Made by a program: the position numbers and the translations under genes | Virus record (IMG/VR): IMGVR_UViG_3300035698_008781 | Coordinates: 14,806 to 78,805 of that record | DNA from: a virus | Length of the DNA stretch: 64,000 nucleotides | Reading direction: 5' to 3' (one strand) | Notes under the pieces: model-generated | The model's input: only the letters and a program-made list of their open reading frames with translations | What the model was told of the DNA's origin: nothing | The model's database searches: none | Shown here: piece after piece, positions 8,764 through 40,121 of the stretch | How positions within the stretch are numbered: the first letter of the stretch is position 1 | Layout of the letters: the number at the start of each line of letters is the position of its first letter

Positions 8764-9163
8764 GGGGCAGACTGGTTTTGACAGGTGATTAATAGCAATA
8801 ATAATCAGTGAGAGAGATAACTCTAAACTAAGGTGAATTTAATTAAACGGAAAAGATAATGATCAAATCGTAGCAAATATGAATGTAGTATATAACATCT
8901 TAAATGGTGGTACTGAAGTATCAAAAGATTTAAATACTATTATGGTAGAAGAAGATTTATTGATGGCAGCATAATATTGCCCAAAGCTAGTTGAGGTAAT
9001 ACTAGTAAATTTATTTAAGATTTCTTCATTAGATTAAATGAAGTGGTGGAAGTTAACCTACTGGTTGACCCTTTCTAACGTAAAGAGTTTAAAGAAACGT
9101 GAAACTGTATAAATTATTATTGTAAACATTGCATGGACGAGGGTTCGAGTCCCTCCTGCTCCA
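8764..9163 (+). ncRNA. ssrA: tmRNA
   Basis: 5' GGGGCAGACTGGTTTTGACAGG; 3' T arm GAGGG-TTCGAGT-CCCTC then CTGCTCCA, giving an acceptor stem with the G3-U70 Ala determinant. Internal tag ORF 8849-8974 ends LLMAA*. CCA not encoded. Confidence 0.95.
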
Positions 9164-9180
9164 CAACTAATTCTTAAATT

Positions 9181-9390
9181 ATGAATATTATAGAAATTAA
9201 AGTAGTAACTATTAGTGAAGATCCTGGTAATCCAGGTTTCATTAAAACACAAACTGTTGGTCGACTTGACAAAAGAGTCAATAGACAACAAGATTTTGTG
9301 AGATGGTATTTAGAAATTCATTCTCAACATGGTAATGTTAATTATGAAGTTTTAGATAAGCTAGAAATAGCTAAAGATAGGGTCTTATAG
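9181..9390 (+). CDS. hypothetical protein
   Basis: 69-aa ORF between tmRNA and tRNA; stop overlaps the tRNA 5' end. Confidence 0.55.
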   Translation: MNIIEIKVVTISEDPGNPGFIKTQTVGRLDKRVNRQQDFVRWYLEIHSQHGNVNYEVLDKLEIAKDRVL

Positions 9391-9452
9391 CTCAGGGGTA
9401 GAGCAGGGTGCTCATAACACTCAGGTCGTAGGTTCAAATCCTTCTAAGACCA
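9381..9452 (+). tRNA. tRNA with CAT anticodon (Ile2-like or Met)
   Basis: Acceptor GGTCTTA/TAAGACC, D arm GCTC/GAGC, anticodon loop CTCATAA, T loop TTCAAAT; CCA not encoded. Confidence 0.9.
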
Positions 9453-9592
9453 CTAATTATTTGATTAATAATTAGTTAGTTAGTTGTAAATGTGAGTGAA
9501 AACTGCGATCATTCCGTGGATGTAGCTCACATTTATTTTAATCATTAATAAAAAACAAAAATTATGGAAGAATTAGTAAAACAAAAACTTAA

Positions 9593-12158: not shown

Positions 12159-15100
12159 ATGAAGAAAGAAATTTATATATATGACTTAGAAACATATCCT
12201 AATATGTTTTTAGCGTCATTTAAAAATGTAAAGAATGGTGAGTGGATAGAGTTTGAAATAAGTGATAGAATAAATCAATTATTAGAATTGAAAATATTTT
12301 TATATAATGAAGTAGGGGGATTAATAGGTTTTAATAATATAAATTTTGATTATCCTGTTTTACATAATTCAGTATTAAATAGTAATAATAATTTTATAAC
12401 ATCTCGTGACATATATAAAGAAGTTGAAAAAGTTATTGCTAATAAGTATTCAAGTATTTGGGATAACCAAACTATAATACCTCAATTAGATTTATATAAA
12501 ATATGGCATTATGATAATAAAAATAAAGCAACTAGTCTTAAATGGTTAGAATTTGCTATGAGATGGTCAAATCTTCAAGAATTACCTTATGAAGTAGGAA
12601 GTATATTAACTTTTGAACAAATGGATGAAGTTAGATTATATTGTAGAAACGATATTAATGCTACTGAAGCATTTTATAATAAAAGTTTAAAACATATATC
12701 AATACGAGAATTCTATACTAAACAAGAAGGTTTAAATATGATGAATGCTTCTGAAATTAGAATGAGTAAAACCATATTTGGTAAATACTTAGCTAAAGAG
12801 ATGGATATTAATATTAAAACTTTAAATGGATTAAGAACTAATAGAAGTGTTGTAAATATTAATGATATAATTTTTAATTATATAAAGTTTAATGATGAAG
12901 AAAATTTAAAAGTTTTAGATTTTTATATAAACTCTGTTTGGAAAAATGATAAGGATGACGATTATGATGGTTTAAGTTATGAAACTAAGTATAAAAATGT
13001 AGTAAGACAATTTGCTGAAGGTGGTTTACATTCATTTGGTAAACCAGGTATATATGAATCAGATGATGAATATGTATTAGTAGATTTAGACTTTGCCAGC
13101 TACTATCCTCATATTTCATTTAGAAACAAATTACATCCAGAACATATTCCTGAAAAGATATTTAGTCAAATTTATGAAGGTTTTTACACTGATCGTAAAA
13201 AGTATGATAAAAAAGATCCTCGTAACTATGTATTGAAGATTATATTAAATGGTTCTTACGGATTAAGTAAAGATAAATTTAGTTTTTTATATGATCCTAA
13301 ATGGCAGTTAGCAATTTGTATTAATGGTCAATTAATGTTAACTATGTTAACTGAAAAAGTATTTGATTATTGTCAATTTGAACCTCAAATAATATTTGAG
13401 AATACAGATGGTGCAATGTATAGAATTAAAAGAACTGATTTAGAAAATATTAATAGAGCTTGTAAAGAAATAGAAGATATTGTTAATATACCATTAGAAA
13501 TTCAAGAATGTCAAAAGATTATTGCAAAAGACGTTAATTATTAGCGTCGTAACCTCGTGAATTGCTGGAAAGCTAAATTAAATAAAATGAATAAAAATCA
13601 AAAATATAAAAAAGGAAAGTTATGCCCTAAATGTAAAAAAGGTGAATTAAATCACTGTGGAAAATATTCTAAAGGTCATAAACATCATATTTATTGTAAA
13701 ATGTGTAGATATTCAAATTTTTAACAAGTCAATCAGCAGCCAAGTTAAATCGGGTTCAGAGACTATCGAAATCACGTATATGACATATATGGAAGAGAGT
13801 AGAGTACATTTAATATACTAGATATATTATTTGGAAGCGCGAGGCAAATTTTATCAGTTTTTATTAGGTTATGTCAAAAATTTATTGTATATCTGTATAG
13901 TTATTAACTATATGTAAAATATATAATATGAAACCTAATATAAATGACAATATATGTGGTATTTACTGCATAAAAAACAAAGTAAACAATAAAGTATACA
14001 TAGGAAAATCTATCAATATTAAAAGAAGAATTTACCAGCATTTATATGATTTAAAAAATAAAAAAATTAAGAATGAAAACTCACATTTTTTAAACGCATG
14101 GTATAAATATGGTAAAGAAAACTTTGAATATTTTATATTAGAAGAATTAGAGTTAAACGATTCTATTTGTAAAGATAGAGAGTTATATTGGATAACAAAA
14201 TATAAATCTACAAACAGAAAATTTGGTTATAATTTAAGGATGGATAGTTCCACTCAAATGATTGTGCATAAAGAAACTTCAGAAAAAATATCTAAAAGAC
14301 TTAAAAAAGAATGGTTTCAAGGTATTAGAAGTGATCATGGTGATAAATTATCATTAAATTGGTCAACTACTCCTGAAAGAAATAAAAAGCAATCTAAAAT
14401 TATGACTAATAATTTAACAATCTGGTCTTATAATATATACGATTTAAATATGAAATTTATTGAAAACTGTAAATATAAAAGGTTAAATGAACTAGGTTTA
14501 AAAGGTTCAATTACTTCATTTTATGGTTTTGAAAAAAGAAATAGTATAAAAACTATTTGTAAGTGTAAAAATTATTTTGTTGAAAGAATTAAAATTTGAA
14601 GATATAGTCCGACACCCTTTGAAAAAAGGGATAAAACAGTAAGTAACAATTATATAAATATTATATCAGATGAAAATATTAAGTTTAAAGGGTGTTTTGA
14701 AATCGACAGAGATTTCCATAAAAATCATAGTAAAAGAATTGTTCCAATTACCCTTGCTAATTATTTCATTAACGGAATATCTTGTGAGAATACTATTAAT
14801 GAACACCAGAAAAATATTAGTTATAGCTTTGCTGATAATCATGGTATTTATGATTTTTGTATAGGTGCTAAAATGAAAGGTGAAAATAAACTTTATAAAA
14901 GAAATATTATTAACTTTAAAGTAATAGATGAACCTATTGGTAAAATAAATAGATATTTTATATCTAATAATGGTAGTGAGCTTATTAAAAAATTACCACC
15001 ATTAGAAAAAAACAGTTTAACTGAGACTGATAAATATAAAAATAAGACTGGTGAACAACAATTTAATATCTTTGATTTTATTGAAGATGTGAAAATTGAT

Positions 15101-19789: not shown

Positions 19790-20734
19790 ATGAAAAATAA
19801 AATCATTCTTACAAGTAAGCATGGAAGACCTTCAACTAAAGAAGTATATTCAACAATGTCATCAGGATCATTAGTCCAAAGAAGACAAATTTTTAGTACT
19901 AAAACTCGTAAATTGTTAAAACAATATTATAGAGTATACAGAAATAATGATAGTAATACCTTACATAAAGAAAAAAATGTAGAAACAGAAGGTAATATTA
20001 TCGTTAGATGGGGTACACGTGAAGAAGTTGTAACAGATTCTTCAACAATTGTATATAATCAAAGTAAAGCAATTGCTAACGCTACGAATAAAAGACTATC
20101 AAGAGAAATTTTCATTGAAAAAAAAGTAAGTTGTCCAGTATTGGTTACACCTGAAAACTTTGATGAATCTTATTTACCTATAATTGCTAGACCATTAGTT
20201 CATTCTAAAGGTAAGAATTTTATAGTACTAAAAACACCAAATGATTTTATTATTCATTATAATAAAAATAATGAAGGTTGGTATTATTCTCAATTTATTA
20301 ATAAAGAGAGAGAATTTAGAATTCATTGTGCTCATAGTAAAGTGTTAGCTGTTATGGAAAAATCAAATCCAGATAATGGTAATATAGCTTGGAATAGAGC
20401 TCAAAATGATACAGAACCATTTGAATATATTGCTTGGTCACAAGTTGATGAACAAGATTTAAAATGCGTACTAGAAGAAGCTATTAAAGCTACTGCTGTA
20501 GTAGGTTTAGATATGGCAGGTGTAGATGTTATGTTATGTGGAGGTACAGCTTATGTACTAGAGGTTAATACTGCTCCCACCCTTAACACATCACCATATG
20601 TTGCTTCTAGATGGGGAATGTATTTTGATTGGTTATTTAGACAAGATAAAAGACGTGAACATTGGGATTATACTCAATTTAAAAAAGGTTCAAGTTTGAT
20701 TTGGAAAAATAAACAATTAAATGAAACTAAATAA
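19790..20734 (+). CDS. ATP-grasp (RimK-like) ligase
   Basis: PIIARP, EREFRIH, GLDMAGVDV, YVLEVNTAP. Confidence 0.85.
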   Translation: MKNKIILTSKHGRPSTKEVYSTMSSGSLVQRRQIFSTKTRKLLKQYYRVYRNNDSNTLHKEKNVETEGNIIVRWGTREEVVTDSSTIVYNQSKAIANATNKRLSREIFIEKKVSCPVLVTPENFDESYLPIIARPLVHSKGKNFIVLKTPNDFIIHYNKNNEGWYYSQFINKEREFRIHCAHSKVLAVMEKSNPDNGNIAWNRAQNDTEPFEYIAWSQVDEQDLKCVLEEAIKATAVVGLDMAGVDVMLCGGTAYVLEVNTAPTLNTSPYVASRWGMYFDWLFRQDKRREHWDYTQFKKGSSLIWKNKQLNETK

Positions 20735-21392: not shown

Positions 21393-21490
21393 AAGTAATA
21401 AACTTAAAATAAAAATAAAATGTCAATAGAAAACGAAAACGGCAATTTTGCCAAACCACTGTTATAAGCAGGTTTTTAACACTAAAAATT

Positions 21491-21673
21491 ATGACTAAAA
21501 AAATTAAATTAGAAATCACAGAAGCACAATTAACAGCTTTAGTAGAAGTTATAAATGAATGTTCTGCAATGATTGGAGCAAGCGGAGAAGATGCAGATAA
21601 AAATAGAACTCATTGGGTTGAATTACTCGATAGACTGCTGAAAAATAATGGTTATAAACGTGAGTTCCTTTAA
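21491..21673 (+). CDS. cassette-borne hypothetical protein
   Basis: 60-aa ORF flanked by GTTATAAGCA and TGCTTATAAC. Confidence 0.65.
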   Translation: MTKKIKLEITEAQLTALVEVINECSAMIGASGEDADKNRTHWVELLDRLLKNNGYKREFL

Positions 21674-21675
21674 AC

Positions 21676-21957
21676 TTGCTTATAACGTTTGGTGCTTTGC
21701 GTAGTGCAAACACCAAGCCAACCAATTGCGGTTATACAGTGTTAGCCACCGTTTTTGAAAAGCACATACTTCATTTTGATATTGGTGATAGTGTGTATTT
21801 AAAAACTGACCCTGAACAATGTGAAAGATTAGTTACGGGTATAAATATTAGACAAGATAGAATTAGCTATGCACTTTCTTTTTTGACAAACGAAAATTAT
21901 CATTACAATTTTGAAATTTCAAAAGAACGAGATATTGTAAAAGCAACGTCATCTTAA
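21676..21957 (+). CDS. cassette-borne hypothetical protein (true start uncertain)
   Basis: FDIGDSVYLKTDPEQ...; the frame runs through the attC-like site. Confidence 0.55.
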   Translation: MLITFGALRSANTKPTNCGYTVLATVFEKHILHFDIGDSVYLKTDPEQCERLVTGINIRQDRISYALSFLTNENYHYNFEISKERDIVKATSS

Positions 21958-22030
21958 ATGGTGAATAACACTGATGACTTTGTCTTGTTGCCGACAAAAC
22001 ACAAGATCAATTTTAAATAAATCACAAATT

Positions 22031-22246
22031 ATGGAAGGAAAATGCCCAAAAGATAGCAGAAAGAATAGACCTGTATTTATTACTTATAACAATAAAAGAA
22101 CATTGGCTATGGCTGATGGTAAAGGACATGCATATAAAATGTACGGTGATGATTATATGCAATTAGAAAGTAAATGCTTACCTGAAAATAAGTACGACCC
22201 AAGTGAATATGAATTTGATAGAGGTTTAAGTGGGTTCGACTTTTAA
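22031..22246 (+). CDS. cassette-borne hypothetical protein
   Basis: ATG 22031 follows an A-rich leader; stop just before GCCTAAC. Confidence 0.55.
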   Translation: MEGKCPKDSRKNRPVFITYNNKRTLAMADGKGHAYKMYGDDYMQLESKCLPENKYDPSEYEFDRGLSGFDF

Positions 22247-22408
22247 TTGTGCCTAACGGTACTCGTGTATAATAAGTGGCTTGTAGATAAACCAACTAAC
22301 TACTTATCAAGACAAACAAATAAATTAAACACAATCTAAGCCATTGACTATACACGATGTTGTGCAATAGTGCTTTTAAAAACAAATATTAATTATAAAA
22401 TTAAAAAA

Positions 22409-22978: not shown

Positions 22979-24079
22979 ATGAACGTACAAGAAAAAATAC
23001 AAAAGGAAGTAGAGGGGAAATGGTATCAAAATAATTGTAAAGGTTTAGCTTTATTAGCTACAGGTTCAGGTAAATCTAAAATATTTATTAATATAGTTTC
23101 TAAAGAAAAGAAAAAATGGTTACTCGTTGTTCCTACTGAGAAACTTCGTGATAGAAATTGGAAGGATGAATTTAAAAAGTGGAAAAAAACAAGTATTTAT
23201 AATAAATATGTAGATACTTGTTGTTATGCTAGTCTTAAAAACATTAATTTATCATTATATGATGGGGTATGTTTGGATGAATGTCATAATATAACTGCTA
23301 ATAATGTGCAACCTTTTAAAAACTATGTAGATTCTATTAAAATACTATGCTTAACAGCTACTAGACCAACTGATTTACAGAAACAATATATATTAGAAAC
23401 CATGTTAAAATGTGAAATAATATATACATTATCATTAAAAGAAGCAATAAAAGTTGGGATAGTAGCTCCGTTAAGTATTATAATTCATGAATTAGAACTT
23501 AATACTATTAAAAATATATCTGTTAAATATAAAGATAAAACAGGTGTTGAAAGAACTTTCTATCAATCTGAAAAAGGTTCATATGACTATATATGTCAAA
23601 AGATAGCGAGAAAATCTAAACCAACATCTTTTGATTATATATTTAGAGCTAAGTTTATTTATGACTCTAAAACTAAAACAGATTATGCTAAAGTATTATT
23701 AGATAAATTACCAAAAGATAAAAGAATATTAATATTTTCACAATCAATTAAACAGATTGAGTCAATAATGAAAGAAACCTATCATTCTAAAACTACAGAT
23801 AAATTTTATAATTTATTTATGAAGGAAAAGATAAAACGACTAGGTGTTGTACAATCATTAAATGAAGGTGAAAATATACCAAACTTAGATATTGGTATGA
23901 TAATACAATTTAATTCTAATCCTAAGAATACGTTTCAACGTATAGGAAGGATTATAAGAAAAAGAGATAACCATGAAGCTGAAATTCATATCATTGTACT
24001 TAAAGATACAGTAGATGAACAGTGGATTAATAATATTCTTATTGAATATGAGGATATAATAACAAGAATTAAAGTATAA
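22979..24079 (+). CDS. superfamily 2 helicase
   Basis: ATGSGKS, DECH, LTAT, QRIGRIIR. Confidence 0.9.
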   Translation: MNVQEKIQKEVEGKWYQNNCKGLALLATGSGKSKIFINIVSKEKKKWLLVVPTEKLRDRNWKDEFKKWKKTSIYNKYVDTCCYASLKNINLSLYDGVCLDECHNITANNVQPFKNYVDSIKILCLTATRPTDLQKQYILETMLKCEIIYTLSLKEAIKVGIVAPLSIIIHELELNTIKNISVKYKDKTGVERTFYQSEKGSYDYICQKIARKSKPTSFDYIFRAKFIYDSKTKTDYAKVLLDKLPKDKRILIFSQSIKQIESIMKETYHSKTTDKFYNLFMKEKIKRLGVVQSLNEGENIPNLDIGMIIQFNSNPKNTFQRIGRIIRKRDNHEAEIHIIVLKDTVDEQWINNILIEYEDIITRIKV

Positions 24080-29554: not shown

Positions 29555-30319
29555 ATGTTATTACCACAAAAGAAAGTGAGTGCAAGTAGAAAAAATCCAA
29601 AAAAATTAATTATATTTAGTAAACCTAAGTCTGGGAAGACAAGTAGTTTAGCTGAATTAGAAGATAATTTTATTGTAGATTTAGAAGGAGGTTCTGAATA
29701 TGTGGATGCATTAAAGGTTAATGTACCTAAAACAGCTGAAGAAAATGGTGAATCACCGTTAGAAGTTGTTAAACAAATTGTTAAAGAATTAAACGAAGTT
29801 AAAAACAAAACTGGTAAAAATCCATATAAAAGAATTACATTAGATACTATTACAGTATTAGAAGAATTAATTCTTCCAATGGCAGCTGACATGTATAGAG
29901 CAACTCCTATGGGTTCATCATGGGCTGGTAGCGATGTAAGAAAATTACCTAATGGAGCAGGTTATGCTTATACTAGAGATGCCTTTTTCTTTGTAGTTAA
30001 TCAATTTGAAAGAGTTTGTGATACATTAATTTTAGTAGGTCACGTTAAACGTAAAAGTATCTCAATAGGAGATGGTGAAATTGATGAAAAATCATTACAT
30101 TTAACAGGTCAAACACCTACGATGGTTTCAGCTGATGCTGATGCTATTGCATATCTTTATAGAGAAGATAACCAAACTATATTAGATTTTGAACCATCAT
30201 CAAGCGTAATTGCTGGTGCAAGATGTGAACATCTTAGAGGTAAAAAAATAGTAGTTGCTGAAAGTAATGAAGAAGGTAAAGTTGTTGTAGATTGGAGCAA
30301 AGTCTTTATTAAAGAATAA
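29555..30319 (+). CDS. AAA_24/Sak4-like ATPase (recombination)
   Basis: SKPKSGKT, VDLEGG, TLDT, LVGH. Confidence 0.8.
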   Translation: MLLPQKKVSASRKNPKKLIIFSKPKSGKTSSLAELEDNFIVDLEGGSEYVDALKVNVPKTAEENGESPLEVVKQIVKELNEVKNKTGKNPYKRITLDTITVLEELILPMAADMYRATPMGSSWAGSDVRKLPNGAGYAYTRDAFFFVVNQFERVCDTLILVGHVKRKSISIGDGEIDEKSLHLTGQTPTMVSADADAIAYLYREDNQTILDFEPSSSVIAGARCEHLRGKKIVVAESNEEGKVVVDWSKVFIKE

Positions 30320-30384
30320 TTAAATGGTTAGACTTCCATTTAAAAAGTCAATTTTAAACAATAATAAATATAAAAATCAAAAGT

Positions 30385-30984
30385 ATGTTTCAATTCGGAA
30401 AAGATCAAGTAAATGAAGGTGGAAATGGTGTTGCAATTTTTAATGATGGTAACGCAGGTAGAGTAACTAATGTAACTTTAGAAGTTAAAAAGAAAGATGT
30501 TGATTATCAAGATGAAGGTAAAAATAAACCTGATTATCAGGTAGTATATACTGATTCAAATGGTTCTTCTACAAATGAAGGATTTTATTACTTGAATGAA
30601 GCTAAACATAATTCTCAATACACAACATTTGAGAAAGCTGTTGAAAAACAATGGAATAAAATGGCAGCAATTGTTATTGCAGCTGATGGTGATCCTACAA
30701 TTAATGCTTCTACACCAGTAGAAATGTTAGATCAAATGGCAATTAAAGTGAAAACTGACGTAGTTGGTAAATCATTCAATGTTCTTACCAATTATGGTAC
30801 AACTTCTTCACCAAAGAAGTATTTACAAATTAGATCTTGGACTCCATTTATTGAGTCAGCAAGTGTATCTGCAGAAAATACTAAACTTAAACCAGGTAAT
30901 TTAGACCAATTAGATAGATTAGTACCAGATGCTAATACTGGTGGTGGTGCTTCTACAGAAGGTACAATGCCAGGATGGGTATAA
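30385..30984 (+). CDS. putative single-stranded DNA-binding protein
   Basis: Follows the Sak4-like gene; flexible tail ending in an aromatic residue; own terminator. Confidence 0.5.
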   Translation: MFQFGKDQVNEGGNGVAIFNDGNAGRVTNVTLEVKKKDVDYQDEGKNKPDYQVVYTDSNGSSTNEGFYYLNEAKHNSQYTTFEKAVEKQWNKMAAIVIAADGDPTINASTPVEMLDQMAIKVKTDVVGKSFNVLTNYGTTSSPKKYLQIRSWTPFIESASVSAENTKLKPGNLDQLDRLVPDANTGGGASTEGTMPGWV

Positions 30985-30997
30985 TATTAAATATAAG

Positions 30998-31023
30998 AAG
31001 AGGGTGTAAAAACCCTCTTTTTT
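30998..31023 (+). terminator. intrinsic terminator
   Basis: AAGAGGGT/ACCCTCTT followed by a T run. Confidence 0.8.
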
Positions 31024-31323
31024 ATTAAATTAAAAAAATATGATTATATATATAATTTTTGCAATAATTAATTATATTATTTGTAAAGTTCTTAGAAATA
31101 GAATTAATTCAAATAAAATTGAAGAAATTAATTATTTACTACTAAAACAAATATTAATATCAAAATTAAAACAGAATGTCTAAAAAAATAATAAAACAAA
31201 CTAATAAAGAAATTAAACAAATTTTAAAAACTTTAGATAATTTGGATATAAAAAATAAAAAACCTATTGATTTTTTAAAGACAATTCCTATAAATGAATT
31301 TAGGTTAAATGGTAAAGTAAGAT

Positions 31324-32358
31324 ATGTACAATTTTAAAGTAAAGACATTTATAAGTGAAGAATCTATATTACATCATGTATCAGATTATGATATTTTTAG
31401 ATATTATATAGGTGATTTCAAAATAGGTAAATCTTTCAATTCACCATTAAGAAAAGATAGTCATGCATCGTTTAACATAGGTTATAACCCTGTGACTAAT
31501 AGATTGTATTGTAATGATTATATATTAGGTGGTGGGAACTTTATAACGTTTGTTATACATAAATTCAACTTATCTTATAGAGAAGCGTGTAATAAAATAG
31601 TTATTGATTTAAATTTAGAAGATCACTTTTATCTATTTAATGTAGAAAAAATAATTGTTAAAGAAAATAAACAATTCGTAAAAAGCAATGATGGTGATAT
31701 TAAAAAGTTTAAAGAAGAAACTAAGTTATCAGCTAAATTAAGAAACTGGGAACAATATGATTATGAATTTTGGAAACAATTTAATGTTTCAAAAGAAATG
31801 TTAAAATTTTACAACGTTCATCCTGCAGAGTATTCAATGATTGGTGATAAAATTTTTAAATTAGATAAATATGCGTATGTATTTATTGAAAATAAAGATA
31901 ATGATAGAACATTAACTATTTATCAACCTTATAGTAATATTCAAAAATGGACAAAAAATCATGATGCATCTGTATGGTATGGTTGGGATCAACTTCCTGA
32001 TAGAGCTGAAAAATTAATAATAACTAAATCAAGAAAAGATATAATGTCAATTCTTGAAACAACAGGTATACCTTCAACAGGTTTACAAAATGAAAAGATT
32101 ATACCTAAAGAACATGTATTACAAGAATTAAAAAATAGATTTGGATTAATATATGTACTTTATGATAATGATTTTGATAAACCAGTAAATTGGGGAAGAG
32201 AATTTGGTGAAAAATTTTCTAATGAATGTAATATATTTCAAATAGAAATACCAGATGAATATCAATCAAAAGACTTCAGTGATTTAATAGTAAATCATGG
32301 TGTAGAAAAAGCAAAAAATGTGTTATTAAAATTAGTAGATGACGCATTACCATTTTAA
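31324..32358 (+). CDS. DNA primase (Toprim, crAss type)
   Basis: SPLRKDSHASF, IITKSRKD, LYDND, KDFSD. Confidence 0.82.
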   Translation: MYNFKVKTFISEESILHHVSDYDIFRYYIGDFKIGKSFNSPLRKDSHASFNIGYNPVTNRLYCNDYILGGGNFITFVIHKFNLSYREACNKIVIDLNLEDHFYLFNVEKIIVKENKQFVKSNDGDIKKFKEETKLSAKLRNWEQYDYEFWKQFNVSKEMLKFYNVHPAEYSMIGDKIFKLDKYAYVFIENKDNDRTLTIYQPYSNIQKWTKNHDASVWYGWDQLPDRAEKLIITKSRKDIMSILETTGIPSTGLQNEKIIPKEHVLQELKNRFGLIYVLYDNDFDKPVNWGREFGEKFSNECNIFQIEIPDEYQSKDFSDLIVNHGVEKAKNVLLKLVDDALPF

Positions 32359-34545: not shown

Positions 34546-36291
34546 ATGTTTATAACAATAATAATAATTTTAGCAATTTTACAAATAGGGTTTAATTTTT
34601 TATTTAAACCTAAATATAATAGGTTGAACTGCGGACTTTTTGGAGCAGCAGCTGACGATATTAACAAAATTAATATTAACAAAATAAAAATTCTTGGTAT
34701 CTTCAATGATACTAGAGGAGGTCATTCATGTGGTTTATCTATTGATGGTGACATAATGATTGGTACATATAAAGAAAAATTATTTAAAGATTTTATTGTA
34801 GATAATTTCATTGGTTCACCATTAGAGATACCAGTTGTAATAGGTCATACTAGATATGCAACAAGTGGTAGTCATAATGATGTTAATGCTCATCCTTTTG
34901 GATTTGGTAATTATGGCGATCATAATGATTATTTTAGATTTATAGGTGCACATAATGGATCTTTAGTTAATCATAAAGAATTAGCTCAAGTGTATGATGT
35001 TTCTTTAACAGAACCTGCATCTACTAAATATAATGCTAAAATGACAAGAGATAAAATTGATTCAGAAGTATTATTAGAAATAATTTATAGAAATGGATTT
35101 AAAGTTTTAGAACAGTATGATGGTGCTGCCGCATTATCTTTTTATGATACAAAAGAACCAAATGTAATATATTTATATCATGGTAAATCAAATCTTAATA
35201 AAAATGTTACTTTTGAAACAGAAGAAAGACCTTTATATTATTATCAAGATAGTGAAAATATATTTTATTATTCATCTATTAAAGATTCGTTAGAAGCAAT
35301 TAATGATACAGATGGTGAAATTAAAGAATTTGAACATAATAAAGTATATAAAATTACAAATGGTAATGTAAAAGAAGCTGTTAAATTTAAAATTAATAGA
35401 TCTAAATGTGTCCAAAAACATACTACTTATAACTCAATAACAACTATTGATTATACTAATAAAAAATGGGATCAAGATTTAAAAAAATGGGTTGAGAAAG
35501 ATTCTAAAAAAGAAGAAGTTAAGAAAATTGAAGAAGCTAAATTAGATTTAAATGATTTAGTTAACCATAAACTTGATTTTGAGAAAAATAAGTTGGTAGA
35601 ACAGGAAGTTTACTATGAAAATTTAAGATTTTTCAAAAATAAAAATTTATTAGAGGGTATTTGGGTAATAGATGAAGATGGTAAATTAAGATTTGTTTGT
35701 CATTCTGATTCAATGTTAGATAAAATTTACGAAGATGATACTACTATTAAAAAAGTAGATGGTGATCCAATATTTTTCTATTTTTATAGAGGAATAATGT
35801 TAAGAAGTCAAAAAGACTATGAACCAGTTAAATCATATGGCAACAGTCTAGGTTTACCTACAGATATTAATAAATTAAGTCATGTGAGTGTATATCCTAT
35901 TAGATCTGAAAGTTATGTTGATAGTTTATCTTTTTTCAGAGGTTCTATTGCGAATTTAAGTTTTACTAATTTATTTACTAATAATTTAATTACTTTGAAT
36001 AATGGTAAATGTACTTCAATACGTAGAAAAGAGCAATCTTTTAGTGATAATAAAAAATTCTACTTACCTGAAGATATTCAATTGATTGAAGATATAATGA
36101 ACCCTAAAGAAAAAGGTGTTGAAACTGATGAAGTTAAAGTTAATGATATATATTCAGAAAATATCTTAGCAACCGTTGATTATTGCATAGATGATGTAGA
36201 TGATTCAATTGATGAAATTGGTGTTCAATCTAAATTTAAAACAAAATTAGAGCTTATAAAAGAGTTCGTTATTAATACATTAAAATTATAA
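34546..36291 (+). CDS. class II (Ntn) glutamine amidotransferase
   Basis: CGLFG, RGGHSCG, GHTRYAT, NAHPF, HNG, DSE. Confidence 0.88.
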   Translation: MFITIIIILAILQIGFNFLFKPKYNRLNCGLFGAAADDINKININKIKILGIFNDTRGGHSCGLSIDGDIMIGTYKEKLFKDFIVDNFIGSPLEIPVVIGHTRYATSGSHNDVNAHPFGFGNYGDHNDYFRFIGAHNGSLVNHKELAQVYDVSLTEPASTKYNAKMTRDKIDSEVLLEIIYRNGFKVLEQYDGAAALSFYDTKEPNVIYLYHGKSNLNKNVTFETEERPLYYYQDSENIFYYSSIKDSLEAINDTDGEIKEFEHNKVYKITNGNVKEAVKFKINRSKCVQKHTTYNSITTIDYTNKKWDQDLKKWVEKDSKKEEVKKIEEAKLDLNDLVNHKLDFEKNKLVEQEVYYENLRFFKNKNLLEGIWVIDEDGKLRFVCHSDSMLDKIYEDDTTIKKVDGDPIFFYFYRGIMLRSQKDYEPVKSYGNSLGLPTDINKLSHVSVYPIRSESYVDSLSFFRGSIANLSFTNLFTNNLITLNNGKCTSIRRKEQSFSDNKKFYLPEDIQLIEDIMNPKEKGVETDEVKVNDIYSENILATVDYCIDDVDDSIDEIGVQSKFKTKLELIKEFVINTLKL

Positions 36292-36293
36292 AT

Positions 36294-37802
36294 ATGGCAA
36301 CAGTGAAAGTCACTACTTTAAATGGTGAAGTAATTTTAAAAAAAAATGCTAGAAAAATAAAAGGCATTAATGGGGAGTTTAATTATTACAAAATAGGTAA
36401 TTTAAGCCAACGTAATTCAGGAGACTGTTATCAAATTAACAATATTTATTATACTGTTGAAAAAGGAAGAATAGAATGGGATCATCATGAACAAATATAC
36501 CAATTGAAATCTAGATTACAAAAAGGTATAGTTGATGAAGAATATAATGTAGGTTACTTTAGTAAAGAAATAAAAGCTATAAAAATATATTCTAAAGCTG
36601 AATTACCAATACTATATATTAATGAATCAATTATTAATAAAAATATTTATATTAAAGTTGGAGAAGATTATTATGATAAATCCATAGTTGATTATAAAAA
36701 AATATTTCCTAGAAAACAAATTTCAAGAGAAGAAAAGAATGAGTTAGAATATAATTTTAAAAATTATTTACCACAAGGTATTGCAAATTATAATAAAAAT
36801 TATAGTGTTACACAAAAAGATTCTTTTATTGAAAAAGTATATTCTTTAAATTCAACATTAATTAATAAATTTACATTTGGTGTTGAATTAGAAACAACTT
36901 CTGGTATGATACCTAAAGAAGTTTATGAAAGATTAGGAGTATTACCTGTAAAAGATGGTTCAATTTCAGGTTTGGAATTTGTAAGTATTCCATTATCTGG
37001 TTTAAAAGGATTATATACATTAAAAGAAATTATTGAGGCTGTAAATATGTATACAGATCATGATTACACTTGTTCTATGCATATACATGTTGGTGGTAAA
37101 GGTGTACCAAGAACTGAAGAATTTATAGTTGCTATGTTTAAAATGGGATTCTTTATTCAAAAAGATTTCTATAGAATGTTTCCAGGCTATAAAGAAATTC
37201 ACGATGGTACTAAAAGACAATGTTATACATCACCTTTAGATTCTGATTTATTATCTAAATTAGAGTATCTTAATGATACACCTAATAAATTATCTAAATC
37301 TTTTAAACACATTGTTCATAGATTAACTAATCACCATGATGCTTTTTCTGTATCAAAGAGGTATTCTATAGCTGATATAAATAGTCATCCTAGTGATCCA
37401 TCAGAAAGAAATAAATGGTACATGAGAGAACGTTATAAATGGTTAAACTTAATACCTTTAATATTTACAAATAAACAAACTATTGAATATAGAATTTTTA
37501 CAGTACCAGATACTGTTAAAAAAGGTTTATTATTTTTATTAAGTAGTTTAGCAGTAACTGATTTTGTAAATACAAACAAAAGTGCTATTTTAGCTGATCC
37601 TGAAGGAGTATATGGATGTAATTTAGAAACAATTTTTTATAGAGCTTTTCCTGTGACAAGTATATTTAATCTATTTACAGATAGGAGAAATTCTGTAGAT
37701 TATATTAAAAAGATGAAAGGTACATTTTTTGAAGAAAAAGATGTTGAATCATATAATAGTTTATTATCTAAAATAAATAGTTTAGATGGAATTAATCTTT
37801 AA
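36294..37802 (+). CDS. putative amidoligase (glutamine-synthetase-like fold)
   Basis: TFGVELE, DGSI, EFVS, CSMHIHVG, RYKWLN, TIEYR. Confidence 0.82.
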   Translation: MATVKVTTLNGEVILKKNARKIKGINGEFNYYKIGNLSQRNSGDCYQINNIYYTVEKGRIEWDHHEQIYQLKSRLQKGIVDEEYNVGYFSKEIKAIKIYSKAELPILYINESIINKNIYIKVGEDYYDKSIVDYKKIFPRKQISREEKNELEYNFKNYLPQGIANYNKNYSVTQKDSFIEKVYSLNSTLINKFTFGVELETTSGMIPKEVYERLGVLPVKDGSISGLEFVSIPLSGLKGLYTLKEIIEAVNMYTDHDYTCSMHIHVGGKGVPRTEEFIVAMFKMGFFIQKDFYRMFPGYKEIHDGTKRQCYTSPLDSDLLSKLEYLNDTPNKLSKSFKHIVHRLTNHHDAFSVSKRYSIADINSHPSDPSERNKWYMRERYKWLNLIPLIFTNKQTIEYRIFTVPDTVKKGLLFLLSSLAVTDFVNTNKSAILADPEGVYGCNLETIFYRAFPVTSIFNLFTDRRNSVDYIKKMKGTFFEEKDVESYNSLLSKINSLDGINL

Positions 37803-38454
37803 AACATGGTTTAATCCACTTAAAGATATTCTATATAGTAATTATTTTAATACACTAATTAAACTATTAGATACACAATATGGTTTATCTAGATTTGCAT
37901 TTAATAAAATAAAGATATATCCAGAAAAAAATAAAGTATTTAATTGCTTTAATTGTGATTTTAATAGTTTAAAGTTAGTAATTATTGGAAGCAAACCTTT
38001 TGAAGAATATTCAGAAGGTTTAGCTTTTGATAGTACTGATTCTAAAATAAGATTATATCCTATTTCTGAATTATTTAGAAAAACTATAGAAGATCAATTT
38101 TATGATGGTTTTAATCTAGATCACGACTGCACTCTTGAATATTTAGTTAAGCAAGATGTATTACTCTTAAATGAAAGTTTAACAGTACAAACAAATAAGT
38201 CAAATATTGATGATTGGAGAGAGTTTATAACATTTGTTATAAATAAAATTCAAGAACGTCATACAGGTATAATATTTTATATTAATGAAAATAGTAAATT
38301 GAAGAATATTATAAATGTTAATACTCAATATTTATTAACTTATAAAGACCCTTTACAATTTGTAAATAAACCTCAAGAATGGGATTTAGATTTACATGCT
38401 GTAAATAACATTATTAGAAATAATAATGGAGAAGAATATATAATTAAATTTTAA
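37786..38454 (+). CDS. uracil-DNA glycosylase-like protein with degenerate active site
   Basis: IYPEKNKVF, KLVIIG, GLAF, QDVLLLNESLTV, W..F match family 1 UNG; GQDPY appears as GSKPF. Confidence 0.7.
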   Translation: MELIFKTWFNPLKDILYSNYFNTLIKLLDTQYGLSRFAFNKIKIYPEKNKVFNCFNCDFNSLKLVIIGSKPFEEYSEGLAFDSTDSKIRLYPISELFRKTIEDQFYDGFNLDHDCTLEYLVKQDVLLLNESLTVQTNKSNIDDWREFITFVINKIQERHTGIIFYINENSKLKNIINVNTQYLLTYKDPLQFVNKPQEWDLDLHAVNNIIRNNNGEEYIIKF

Positions 38455-38526
38455 AAATATGATAGCAATTTTATTAGGTTTATTATCAGGTATGTTTTTA
38501 TATTTATGGTCAAATGAAGAATAAAT

Positions 38527-38922
38527 ATGGCAAATAGAAATAGAAACGCAGGAAATCAATATGAAAGAGATATTGTAAATGAATTAAAAGAATTAGGGTT
38601 TGATACAGTAGTTACTTCACGATCAGAATCACGTAATATGGATAATGCAAAAGTTGATATATTTGATCCTGAAGGTAACTTTCCTTACTTTATACAAAAT
38701 AAAGTATTAAAAAGTTATCCTAATTTAAATGAATTAATACATGGTGAGGATGTTCATAAAAAACTACCTTTACTTGTATTCCATAAAAAAGTCATAAAGA
38801 AAAACACAAGATTTTTTACAGAAGGAGAGTTTGTGAGTATGGACAAGCAAACATTTTATGATTTATTAATACAAGCCTATGGAATTAACGAAGATGAACA
38901 ACTTAGCCAAGACATGCTTTAA
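38527..38922 (+). CDS. Holliday junction resolvase-like PD-(D/E)XK nuclease
   Basis: GNQYERDIVNEL, VDI, IQNK. Confidence 0.7.
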   Translation: MANRNRNAGNQYERDIVNELKELGFDTVVTSRSESRNMDNAKVDIFDPEGNFPYFIQNKVLKSYPNLNELIHGEDVHKKLPLLVFHKKVIKKNTRFFTEGEFVSMDKQTFYDLLIQAYGINEDEQLSQDML

Positions 38923-39148
38923 TCAAAAAGATTATAGCTGTTTTATGGCAAAAGTTAATAACCAACAATTAAACGGTGCAAGGTTATTTGTTGAAGAAAA
39001 ATTGGATGAAGTTATATTTAGTAATAAACTTCAATCTATTGCACATAAACAACAACAATATGTTAATTTAAAAAAATTAGATAATATTGTTACAAATGAA
39101 TATATAAATCAAATTGACACATATGGAGCAAAGACAATTAGTAAGTAA
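38879..39148 (+). CDS. hypothetical protein
   Basis: 89-aa ORF. Confidence 0.55.
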   Translation: MELTKMNNLAKTCFNQKDYSCFMAKVNNQQLNGARLFVEEKLDEVIFSNKLQSIAHKQQQYVNLKKLDNIVTNEYINQIDTYGAKTISK

Positions 39149-40121
39149 TAATATAAGTTATTCATTATTAAAGTCTTTTGATGAAAATGGACCCAAAGTA
39201 CTAGTAGAAACTAAAAAAGTATATACTAAATCACTAGACTATGGTTCTAAAGTTGATGATTTTATTACAATGACAAAAGAAGAGTTTAATAATAACTATT
39301 TAGTTGTACAAAATGTTGAATCAGGAGATTTGTTTAAATTAGCTGAATTTGTTGTAAAAGCAAATATTAATTTAAAAGAAATTAATGATAAAATATTAGA
39401 TAAAATATGTCAAATAAGTGTTGATAATGAATTATTCAAAAGAATAAAATTAAAAGAATCTAGGATAAAGAAATTTAATGTACAATCATTTTATGATGTT
39501 TGTGATTTAATTGTTGCAAATCCTGGTAAAACATTTATAGAACCACATGAATATAGTAAATTACTTCAAGCAAAATCTTCTTTATATAATCATAAGTCAA
39601 CTAGAAACTATTTTAATATTTTTGGTAATGTCGAGGAATTACATCAAGTGGTTTTAAATTATGAGTATAAAGAAAAGAATGTTAAATGTGTATTAGATAA
39701 ATTAATAATCAATCATGATGTAAAAACAATTCAAGGTATTGATTTAAAAACAGGTTCTCCAGATACAATGGAGTTTATGCATAATTTTTTCAAATATAAA
39801 TATTATTTTCAAGGTGCATTATATCAAAATGGAATATTCCAACAATTTGAACATATATACCCTGATTATGAAGTTTTACCTTTTAAATATATATATTTAC
39901 CTACTTTTAATATTAATAATCCTAAAACATTTATATTAACAAATAAATGGATTAATGCAGCTTGGGATGGTTTTACAACTAAATCAGGTTATAGATATAG
40001 AGGTATAAGTGAATTAGTTGATGAAATTAAATGGCATATTAAAAATCAAGTTTTTAATGAAACTAGAGAGTTTTACAATAATTTAGAAATTGAATTGAAT
40101 GATGATTTTATAAATTTATAA
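39114..40121 (+). CDS. PD-(D/E)XK exonuclease (RecE/ExoVIII-like)
   Basis: SYSLLK, GS, KCVLDKL, IDLKT, YYFQGALY. Confidence 0.75.
   Translation: MTHMEQRQLVSNNISYSLLKSFDENGPKVLVETKKVYTKSLDYGSKVDDFITMTKEEFNNNYLVVQNVESGDLFKLAEFVVKANINLKEINDKILDKICQISVDNELFKRIKLKESRIKKFNVQSFYDVCDLIVANPGKTFIEPHEYSKLLQAKSSLYNHKSTRNYFNIFGNVEELHQVVLNYEYKEKNVKCVLDKLIINHDVKTIQGIDLKTGSPDTMEFMHNFFKYKYYFQGALYQNGIFQQFEHIYPDYEVLPFKYIYLPTFNINNPKTFILTNKWINAAWDGFTTKSGYRYRGISELVDEIKWHIKNQVFNETREFYNNLEIELNDDFINL

Follow-up and report, generated by a model that had tools for sequence, protein, structure and literature searches.

Integron-like cassette sites in a Bacteroidota phage belong to a family shared with recombinase-associated arrays of Flavobacterium and Cytophaga

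Our analysis of a 64-kb window of phage DNA (the whole stretch under study, 64,000 nt, positions 14,806 to 78,805 of IMG/VR virus record IMGVR_UViG_3300035698_008781) identified a block of approximately 0.95 kb, at positions 21430–22374, that holds three small cassettes. We consider it likely that this block is a CALIN-type cluster of three cassettes, with sites homologous to those of Flavobacterium and Cytophaga arrays and with a host enzyme most likely acting on them. The window's example is small and decayed, yet it is part of a large and coherent family of sites that is common to host and phage. More generally, our data suggest that Flavobacterium phages swap accessory genes as cassettes by means of a host enzyme.

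The virus record (78.8–78.9 kb, 78 % complete, GC content 25 %) belongs to a Bacteroidota phage, and the block is set in its replication and nucleotide-metabolism region, close to a RimK-like ATP-grasp gene and a helicase gene and surrounded by genes for thymidylate synthase, ribonucleotide reductase, DNA polymerase and primase. As originally predicted, the block is less AT-biased than its surroundings, with a GC content of 0.323 against 0.264 and 0.239 in the flanks. A blastn search of the region against the phage collection gave no match, and searching IMG/VR with the helicase yielded no relative. The phage closest to that of the window, with 67–84 % amino acid identity in the flanking genes, lacks the block; it has unrelated AT-rich ORFs at the same position, and no site was recognized there by the covariance model described below.

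The sites were recognized with R1, a covariance model made from 16 bacterial sites only, all of which adjoin an IntI-like recombinase; the CALIN call made here rests on R1, which was built in this analysis, and not on the attC model of IntegronFinder. The features of the block and its two neighbouring phage genes are as follows (window coordinates).

19790–20734: ATP-grasp gene, RimK-like, phage gene near the block
21430–21460, + strand: truncated site remnant, the L′ half alone without R″/L″, left edge of the inserted block
21461–21475, + strand: R′ box of cassette 1 (GTTA-N6-G-N4), GTTATAAGCAGGTTT, complementary at 14/15 positions to 21672–21686, with G·T at position 11
21491–21673, + strand: cassette 1 ORF, 60 aa, phrog_21778 (PHROGs match)
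21672–21686, + strand: R″ box of cassette 1, AAACTTGCTTATAAC, partner of 21461–21475
21672–21755, + strand: short attC-type site, from R″ of cassette 1 through an inner hairpin to R′ of cassette 2; R1 score 25.1 bits, E 4.5e-4; hairpin fold
21741–21755, + strand: R′ box of cassette 2, end of the short site
21793–21957, + strand: cassette 2 ORF, 54 aa, likely GTG start at 21793, frame open from 21676
21955–21969, + strand: R″ box of cassette 2, ending in ...AATAAC, core and outer positions complementary to 21741–21755
21970–22031, + strand: degenerate site-derived leader before the cassette 3 ORF, no R′ core, recognized by identity to leaders in phage contigs L078 and L027
22032–22246, + strand: cassette 3 ORF, 71 aa (90 aa from a start at 21974)
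22243–22374, + strand: complete attC-type site, right edge of the block; R1 score 40.0 bits, E 1.3e-7, full model length
22979–24079: helicase gene, phage gene near the block

The repeats on which the original prediction was founded are all present. The bracket of the first gene is the sole pair in the 64-kb window with at least 13 Watson–Crick pairs under the cassette rule (GTT...AAC, with G at position 11 and T opposite), and its 14 pairs were reached in 0/100 dinucleotide shuffles. The bracket of the second gene extends to 18 nt (21737–21754/21956–21973, 83 %); the G·T position is kept in the R boxes of this cassette, with a mismatch at two of the N6 positions. Its ORF probably starts with the GTG at 21793, because the frame contains no ATG. 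The third gene was correctly described as being followed by a complete site between GCCTAAC and GTTGTGC, the arms of which (22263–22282/22338–22357) match at 85 %, but the gene has no recognizable 5′ core of its own and is preceded by a degenerate leader (21971–22036). Complementarity of the cassette ends is thus 14/15 in cassette 1, partial in cassette 2 and lacking in cassette 3.

In the complete site at the right edge, the cassette 3 R″ box (22243–22257, ...GCCTAAC) is followed by a spacer of 5 nt, then by a long and imperfect L stem and finally by an R′ box (from 22358, GTTGTGC...); the fold of this site contains a 5-nt by 1-nt internal loop. When folded singly as DNA, the window's sites are little better than shuffled sequences (z of −1 to −2); for the left remnant and the leader in the middle, the folds do not surpass those of shuffles. 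R1 found no match at the left remnant (21430–21460); together with the adjoining R′ box, the remnant (21430–21476) is identical at 42 of 47 positions to the L′–R′ end that belongs to a full site of phage contig L027 (5096–5141). The original prediction needs correcting here, in that the left edge of the block is only the right half of a site. In the middle, 21971–22036 shares 53 of 66 positions with the leader that a recurrent type of cassette has in L078, and 35 of 44 positions with L027. The truncated left site and the degenerate middle site indicate that the window's array is either old or second-hand, and for the same reason its borders are not clean crossover products. The truncated edge, the degenerate leader, the complete last site and the blockless relative point to either a lineage-specific acquisition that has since eroded, or recombination with another phage.

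The leader that precedes the third ORF of the window is a degenerate copy of that of a recurrent ORF of about 108 aa (L027:4226–4573, L078:6934–7260), which starts within the site and has a conserved N-terminal GNKSKPLL. This peptide is encoded by the L′–R′ DNA itself, so that either the site doubles as coding sequence or the ORF call is an artefact. Tandem GTTA cores occur at window positions 21731–21745 and at approximately 2490–2510 of L027 (GTTATACAGT|GTTAGCC), the first of them being complementary to the R″ box of the preceding cassette; the arrangement looks like the scar of an earlier crossover.

Apart from phrog_21778 for the first ORF, searches of Pfam and PHROGs did not assign a function to any of the three; the second and third matched no Pfam or PHROGs family, and tblastn against phages found nothing for them. 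A homologue of the first ORF in the Flavobacterium phage lillamy (37 % amino acid identity) is framed by the same two 15-mers, and homologues in Cellulophaga phages lack these flanks. No relative was found in the 401 Flavobacterium genomes searched, which is weak evidence as the query is short. Rfam, which has no attC family, matched nothing inside the block and only a tRNA and a tmRNA in the window.

The family to which these sites belong has the architecture of attC. The consensus fold of the R1 alignment comprises 23 base pairs, of which 17 show compensatory changes, and is made up of the core TAACG/TGTTA, a 4-nt unpaired spacer, an 18-bp L stem and a bulge. Both the family alignment and the complete site at 22243–22374 have the order R″(..AAC)–spacer–L″...L′–R′(GTT..), folded into an imperfect hairpin with unpaired bases. 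In the whole virus record, R1 recognizes 22243–22374 and 21672–21755, the window's two complete sites, and nothing else; they lie on the + strand approximately 490 bp apart with no integrase, which is the composition of a CALIN (at least two attC sites close together, integrase absent). The suggestion that the repeats are attC-like, which could have failed at this point, was thus upheld. The model found approximately 75 matches in Flavobacterium phage loci and zero in Cellulophaga phage loci, and its discrimination between strands amounted to about 58 bits in one locus.

As well as the window, the site family is present in the cultured Flavobacterium phages lillamy, mumin and 11b and in IMG/VR contigs, in arrays of up to approximately 20 small ORFs. 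An exact scan of IMG/VR with the left 15-mer returned 98 matches, about the number expected by chance, and became informative after filtering for a partner repeat: eight phage loci carry the identical R′ 15-mer with its R″ partner 207–344 nt downstream, and enclose different ORFs. The array of L027 contains about 20 small ORFs in 8 kb, each framed by its own 14–15-nt inverted repeat and separated from the next by elements of 65–190 nt of the form ...YAAC|GT...hairpin...CT|GTTA... A blastn search with this array against 50,697 phage records matched only Flavobacterium phages (11b, Baltic vB_FspS phages and F. psychrophilum phages). Genes for DNA methyltransferases lie within the arrays of lillamy, mumin and the Polaribacter phage P12002L. 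The last of these (locus L171) has at least seven weak R1 matches, all on the gene-sense strand; the matches at 29997–32292 and 38023–39721 are situated between minus-strand genes, several of which are DNA methyltransferase genes.

The ends of individual cassettes are complementary throughout the family. We anchored the R boxes on R1 matches, which frees the sample from the bias of a repeat search. Out of 10 variable positions, 8.88 were complementary between the R′ box of one site and the R″ box of the next, which bound a single cassette (n=65); between the two R boxes of one and the same site, 3.67 matched (n=76). In 59 of the 65 cassettes, a G at position 11 of the R box faces a T. Complementarity of cassette ends is the classical argument for movement by a crossover inside the site; Hall, Brookes and Stokes are said to have used it in 1991 as evidence for crossover at G|TT. 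The 15-bp R box with its fixed mismatch is particular to this family of phage and host sites.

Natural variation among related phages reveals gain, loss and replacement of cassettes at precise points. Phages mumin6-1 and mumin6-3 are identical over 6.9 kb apart from a 506-bp indel, which comprises a single site with a single ORF and has the direct repeat TAACGTT at its borders. Similarly, lillamy9-1 and lillamy9-6 are identical over 7.3 kb apart from one replaced block, both ends of which fall at TAAC|GT. In the blocks common to lillamy and mumin, six of seven internal ends lie at −19 to +26 nt of a TAAC|GTT junction, the remaining one being at an L′|GTTA junction and not at the core. A contig from a salt-lake metagenome carries cassette 2 of the window (21702–21969, eight differences) in another context and diverges immediately after 21969 (...AATAAC). 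Only small shares of the salt-lake runs were available as contigs; the uncovered parts are uninformative, and two reported 'joints' with sides of 21–22 letters were left uncounted.

Precise gain and loss have therefore been observed in related Flavobacterium phages and, for cassette 2 of the window, in one metagenome contig, so that this check came out in favour of the original prediction. For the window's own lineage, the nearest relative shows absence of the block only. The indels at the core indicate that the mobile unit is a site plus its downstream ORF, with crossover in TAAC|GTT. Read on the opposite strand, this unit has the canonical integron layout (GTT core, ORF, site, crossover at G|TT), in agreement with the attI junctions of the host arrays.

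A search for the same sites near an integrase in Bacteroidota had been suggested, and we found them so placed in Flavobacterium and Cytophaga genomes. A 17-mer scan of species-representative genomes gave mostly chance matches and six real loci, with the same structures in Cytophaga aurantiaca DSM 3654, in two Flavobacterium MAGs and in Bacteroidia MAGs; one of the Flavobacterium MAGs has nine cassettes in 7.3 kb. Host sites are homogeneous and approximately 148 nt long. The Cytophaga array adjoins a gene for a 473-aa tyrosine recombinase across a region of 95 nt, and its first cassette ends ...CAGCTAAC followed by non-site sequence, which points to an attI-type junction. Two Flavobacterium contigs share this layout, so that in three loci (L162, L163 and L164) the recombinase lies directly beside the array with an attI-like junction, ...AAC|TAG or ...AAC|TTG. 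R1 matches were present in 129 of 151 sampled Flavobacterium species genomes (85 %), and in all five further genomes checked the recombinase orthologue was single-copy, at the head of the array and co-oriented with the cassette ORFs.

In the attI-like regions (L163:2320–2457, L164:733–900 and L162:1075–1169), repeated CGTATATAC-like motifs were seen in two Flavobacterium contigs and may be recombinase-binding sites. The last cassette of phage lillamy9-6 (L004:2171–2200) ends ...TTATAAC|TACAATATTAC, which resembles the host attI junctions ...AAC|TAGTATATATG and may therefore represent an attI-like array end in a phage. One genome has R1 matches across approximately 130 kb (G140:C1:3088077–3219487) downstream of the recombinase gene (3074332–3075378). 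The Flavobacterium genomes without an R1 match are mostly chromosomes of 4–6 Mb.

The host recombinase resembles an integron integrase without fully qualifying as one. It scored 197.5–201.6 bits against TIGR02249 (integron integrase), below the curated cut-off of 265, and its best family was NF040815 (XerA/integron integrase) at 209–216 bits, against a cut-off of 220. Model positions 180–238, where the IntI-specific insertion would lie, have no match in the protein, which is only about 20 residues long in this stretch.

Phage and host arrays differ in the orientation of their ORFs. On the strand that reads TAAC|G...GTTA, 50 of 51 host ORFs are antisense and all 84 phage ORFs are sense, so that phage cassettes mirror host cassettes with respect to the site. 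The canonical polarity, in which an ORF precedes a co-oriented attC, is absent from the phage arrays, and the array of the window obeys the phage rule. As the polarity of phage ORFs is the reverse of that in the host, phage cassettes are not simply borrowed host cassettes.

The original prediction noted no tyrosine recombinase in the window, and none was found in the whole record of approximately 78.8 kb. Neither tyrosine nor serine recombinases nor Y1 transposases were found in the record, in array-bearing contigs that are 97 % and 100 % complete, in lillamy9-6 or in mumin6-1; two other array-bearing contigs (G001 and G002) do have a tyrosine recombinase. As no recombinase was found in these array-bearing phages, a host enzyme is the simplest source, and it is the enzyme that most likely acts on them. 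An HUH/IS200-type mechanism was dropped, as no Y1 transposase was found and the right end of a cassette lacks its own hairpin.

In the explanation that we favour, a cassette is an ORF with an R′ box of 15 nt (GTTR-N6-G-N4) on one side and a complementary R″ box (N4-T-N6-YAAC) on the other, and imperfect hairpin sites (R″–spacer–L″...L′–R′) separate the cassettes. Cassettes move as a site plus the following ORF through crossover in the 7-nt core TAAC|GTT, a point that corresponds to the integron G|TT crossover when the sense strand of the host cassettes is read. The substrate would presumably be single-stranded, folded sites, and the host enzyme would most likely act on phage DNA during infection. 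Homologous recombination of the phage at conserved sites may add to cassette movement. Capture of cassettes through a host or distant integrase, as originally proposed, is supported by R1 and the indels as far as the cassettes are concerned; the part played by the host integrase is what we infer.

A different explanation is that the sites are stem-loops with a regulatory or RNA-level role (terminators, processing sites or pairing of mRNA ends), kept for gene expression, with the ORFs shuffled by homologous or short-homology recombination of the phage and no integrase involved, a scheme proposed for the promoter/stem-loop cassettes of T4-type phages discussed below. Several observations would fit: the phages lack a recombinase, T runs follow the R′ boxes, one block end lies at the other junction (L′|GTTA), and the 7-nt direct repeat could permit slippage deletions. 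The phage sites lie on the sense strand and so are transcribed, and on that strand the fixed mismatch is a wobble compatible with G·U. However, in all of the host genomes that were examined, sites of the same family adjoin a dedicated tyrosine recombinase and attI-type junctions, and the antisense position of the host sites relative to the ORFs makes a shared mRNA function unlikely. Moreover, crossovers cluster at one core, and a scan of the window's block for sigma-70 promoters (a model that does not cover Bacteroidota promoters) and terminators showed no enrichment. We regard this explanation as unlikely.

It is very improbable that the ORFs, together with their terminal inverted repeats of 15 nt, are miniature transposons (MITE- or MPME-like) inserting into hairpin targets. 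Single small ORFs framed by terminal inverted repeats, and the same repeats around different ORFs, are what such an element would display, but neither a transposase nor a target-site duplication was found, the natural indel unit includes the whole upstream site with TAAC|GTT on both sides and does not stop at the repeat ends, and a tyrosine recombinase stands at the head of host arrays. Chance matches in AT-rich DNA, which the near-chance count of the exact 15-mer scan might recall, are refuted by the shuffles, by the eight loci with a partner repeat at cassette distance and by the E values of the R1 matches (1e-7 and 4.5e-4), and their likelihood is negligible.

The original prediction considered this route of gene capture to be little described for phages. 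It is not new in kind, because phage genomes with clusters of attC sites have been reported before (Qi et al. 2023, Front Microbiol, PMC9892861). That study described CALINs in 17 phages, including the virulent Polaribacter phage P12002L, and found that IntI1 recombines five of six tested phage sites, which differ from the ones described here. Its clusters are like ours in that attC-type hairpins lie between ORFs in phages without an integrase, and the published site P12002L_attC1 falls within a weak R1 match; two sites were published for P12002L, against the at least seven R1 matches in our analysis. The 17 CALINs of that study are small, and its text and supplement, as consulted, name no Flavobacterium phage. 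The study does not report host arrays of the same family, reversed polarity, a fixed G·T in an R box of 15 bp, or indels of cassettes in nature. In the literature searched, coverage of which is incomplete, no description was found of the polarity rule, the G·T mark, the Flavobacterium arrays or the host recombinase without the insertion.

On the host side, the arrays are like sedentary chromosomal integrons such as that of Vibrio cholerae in having one integrase, an attI-type junction, long arrays of single ORFs and homogeneous sites, and like Treponema-type integrons (PMC4889954) in that the integrase is co-oriented with the cassettes. Unlike sedentary integrons, they have a recombinase that scores below the curated IntI cut-offs and lacks the stretch holding the IntI-specific insertion, and their R box measures 15 bp instead of 7. 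The large IntegronFinder 2 survey names Salinibacter ruber as the sole Bacteroidetes genome with a complete integron, and a 2026 paper on F. bizetiae detected no integron with IntegronFinder 2.

On the phage side, there is also a likeness to the promoter/stem-loop (PeSL) cassettes that, as reported by Arbiol et al. 2010, shuffle small early genes in T4-type phages. Both involve small accessory ORFs in a plastic phage region, with a conserved stem-loop module upstream and a content that varies among close relatives. PeSL shuffling is ascribed to homologous recombination at the promoter motif, whereas the sites described here are homologous to sites associated with a host recombinase, carry cores of the AAC/GTT type, have complementary ends that are specific to each cassette, and undergo indels at a single core.

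A broader proposal, which we raise tentatively and hold to be somewhat doubtful in its entirety, is that Flavobacteriia and their phages share a distinct integron-like system that standard surveys for integrons largely miss. It would combine an Xer/IntI-like recombinase without the IntI insertion, sites of approximately 148 nt and a 15-bp R box with an invariant G·T; on the phage side, it would comprise recombinase-free arrays of up to about 20 cassettes in virulent phages, with ORFs in mirror orientation to those of the host. Phage and host would then use the same enzyme, with two pools of cassettes that are silent when captured across.

If a host recombinase does move the cassettes, this would explain the precise turnover of single accessory genes, including those for DNA methyltransferases, in virulent phages lacking any integrase. 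A hypervariable phage region would in addition be linked to a specific host system, providing a signal for host prediction. The strict mirror polarity of phage and host cassettes represents a testable rule, and a host recombinase without the insertion that is thought essential for attC recognition represents a testable point; both matter for the way in which integron-type sites are read, and for the question of whether phage and host trade cassettes or keep them separate. The system is experimentally accessible because phages lillamy, mumin and 11b and their hosts are in culture.

Lastly, the phage record encodes a tmRNA (window positions 8764–9166; ARAGORN; Rfam 52.8 bits) and a tRNA-Met (9381–9453). 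The RimK-like ATP-grasp gene (19790–20734) and a cluster of glutamine amidotransferase/amidoligase genes (34546–37802) are putative auxiliary metabolic or modification genes of this phage.
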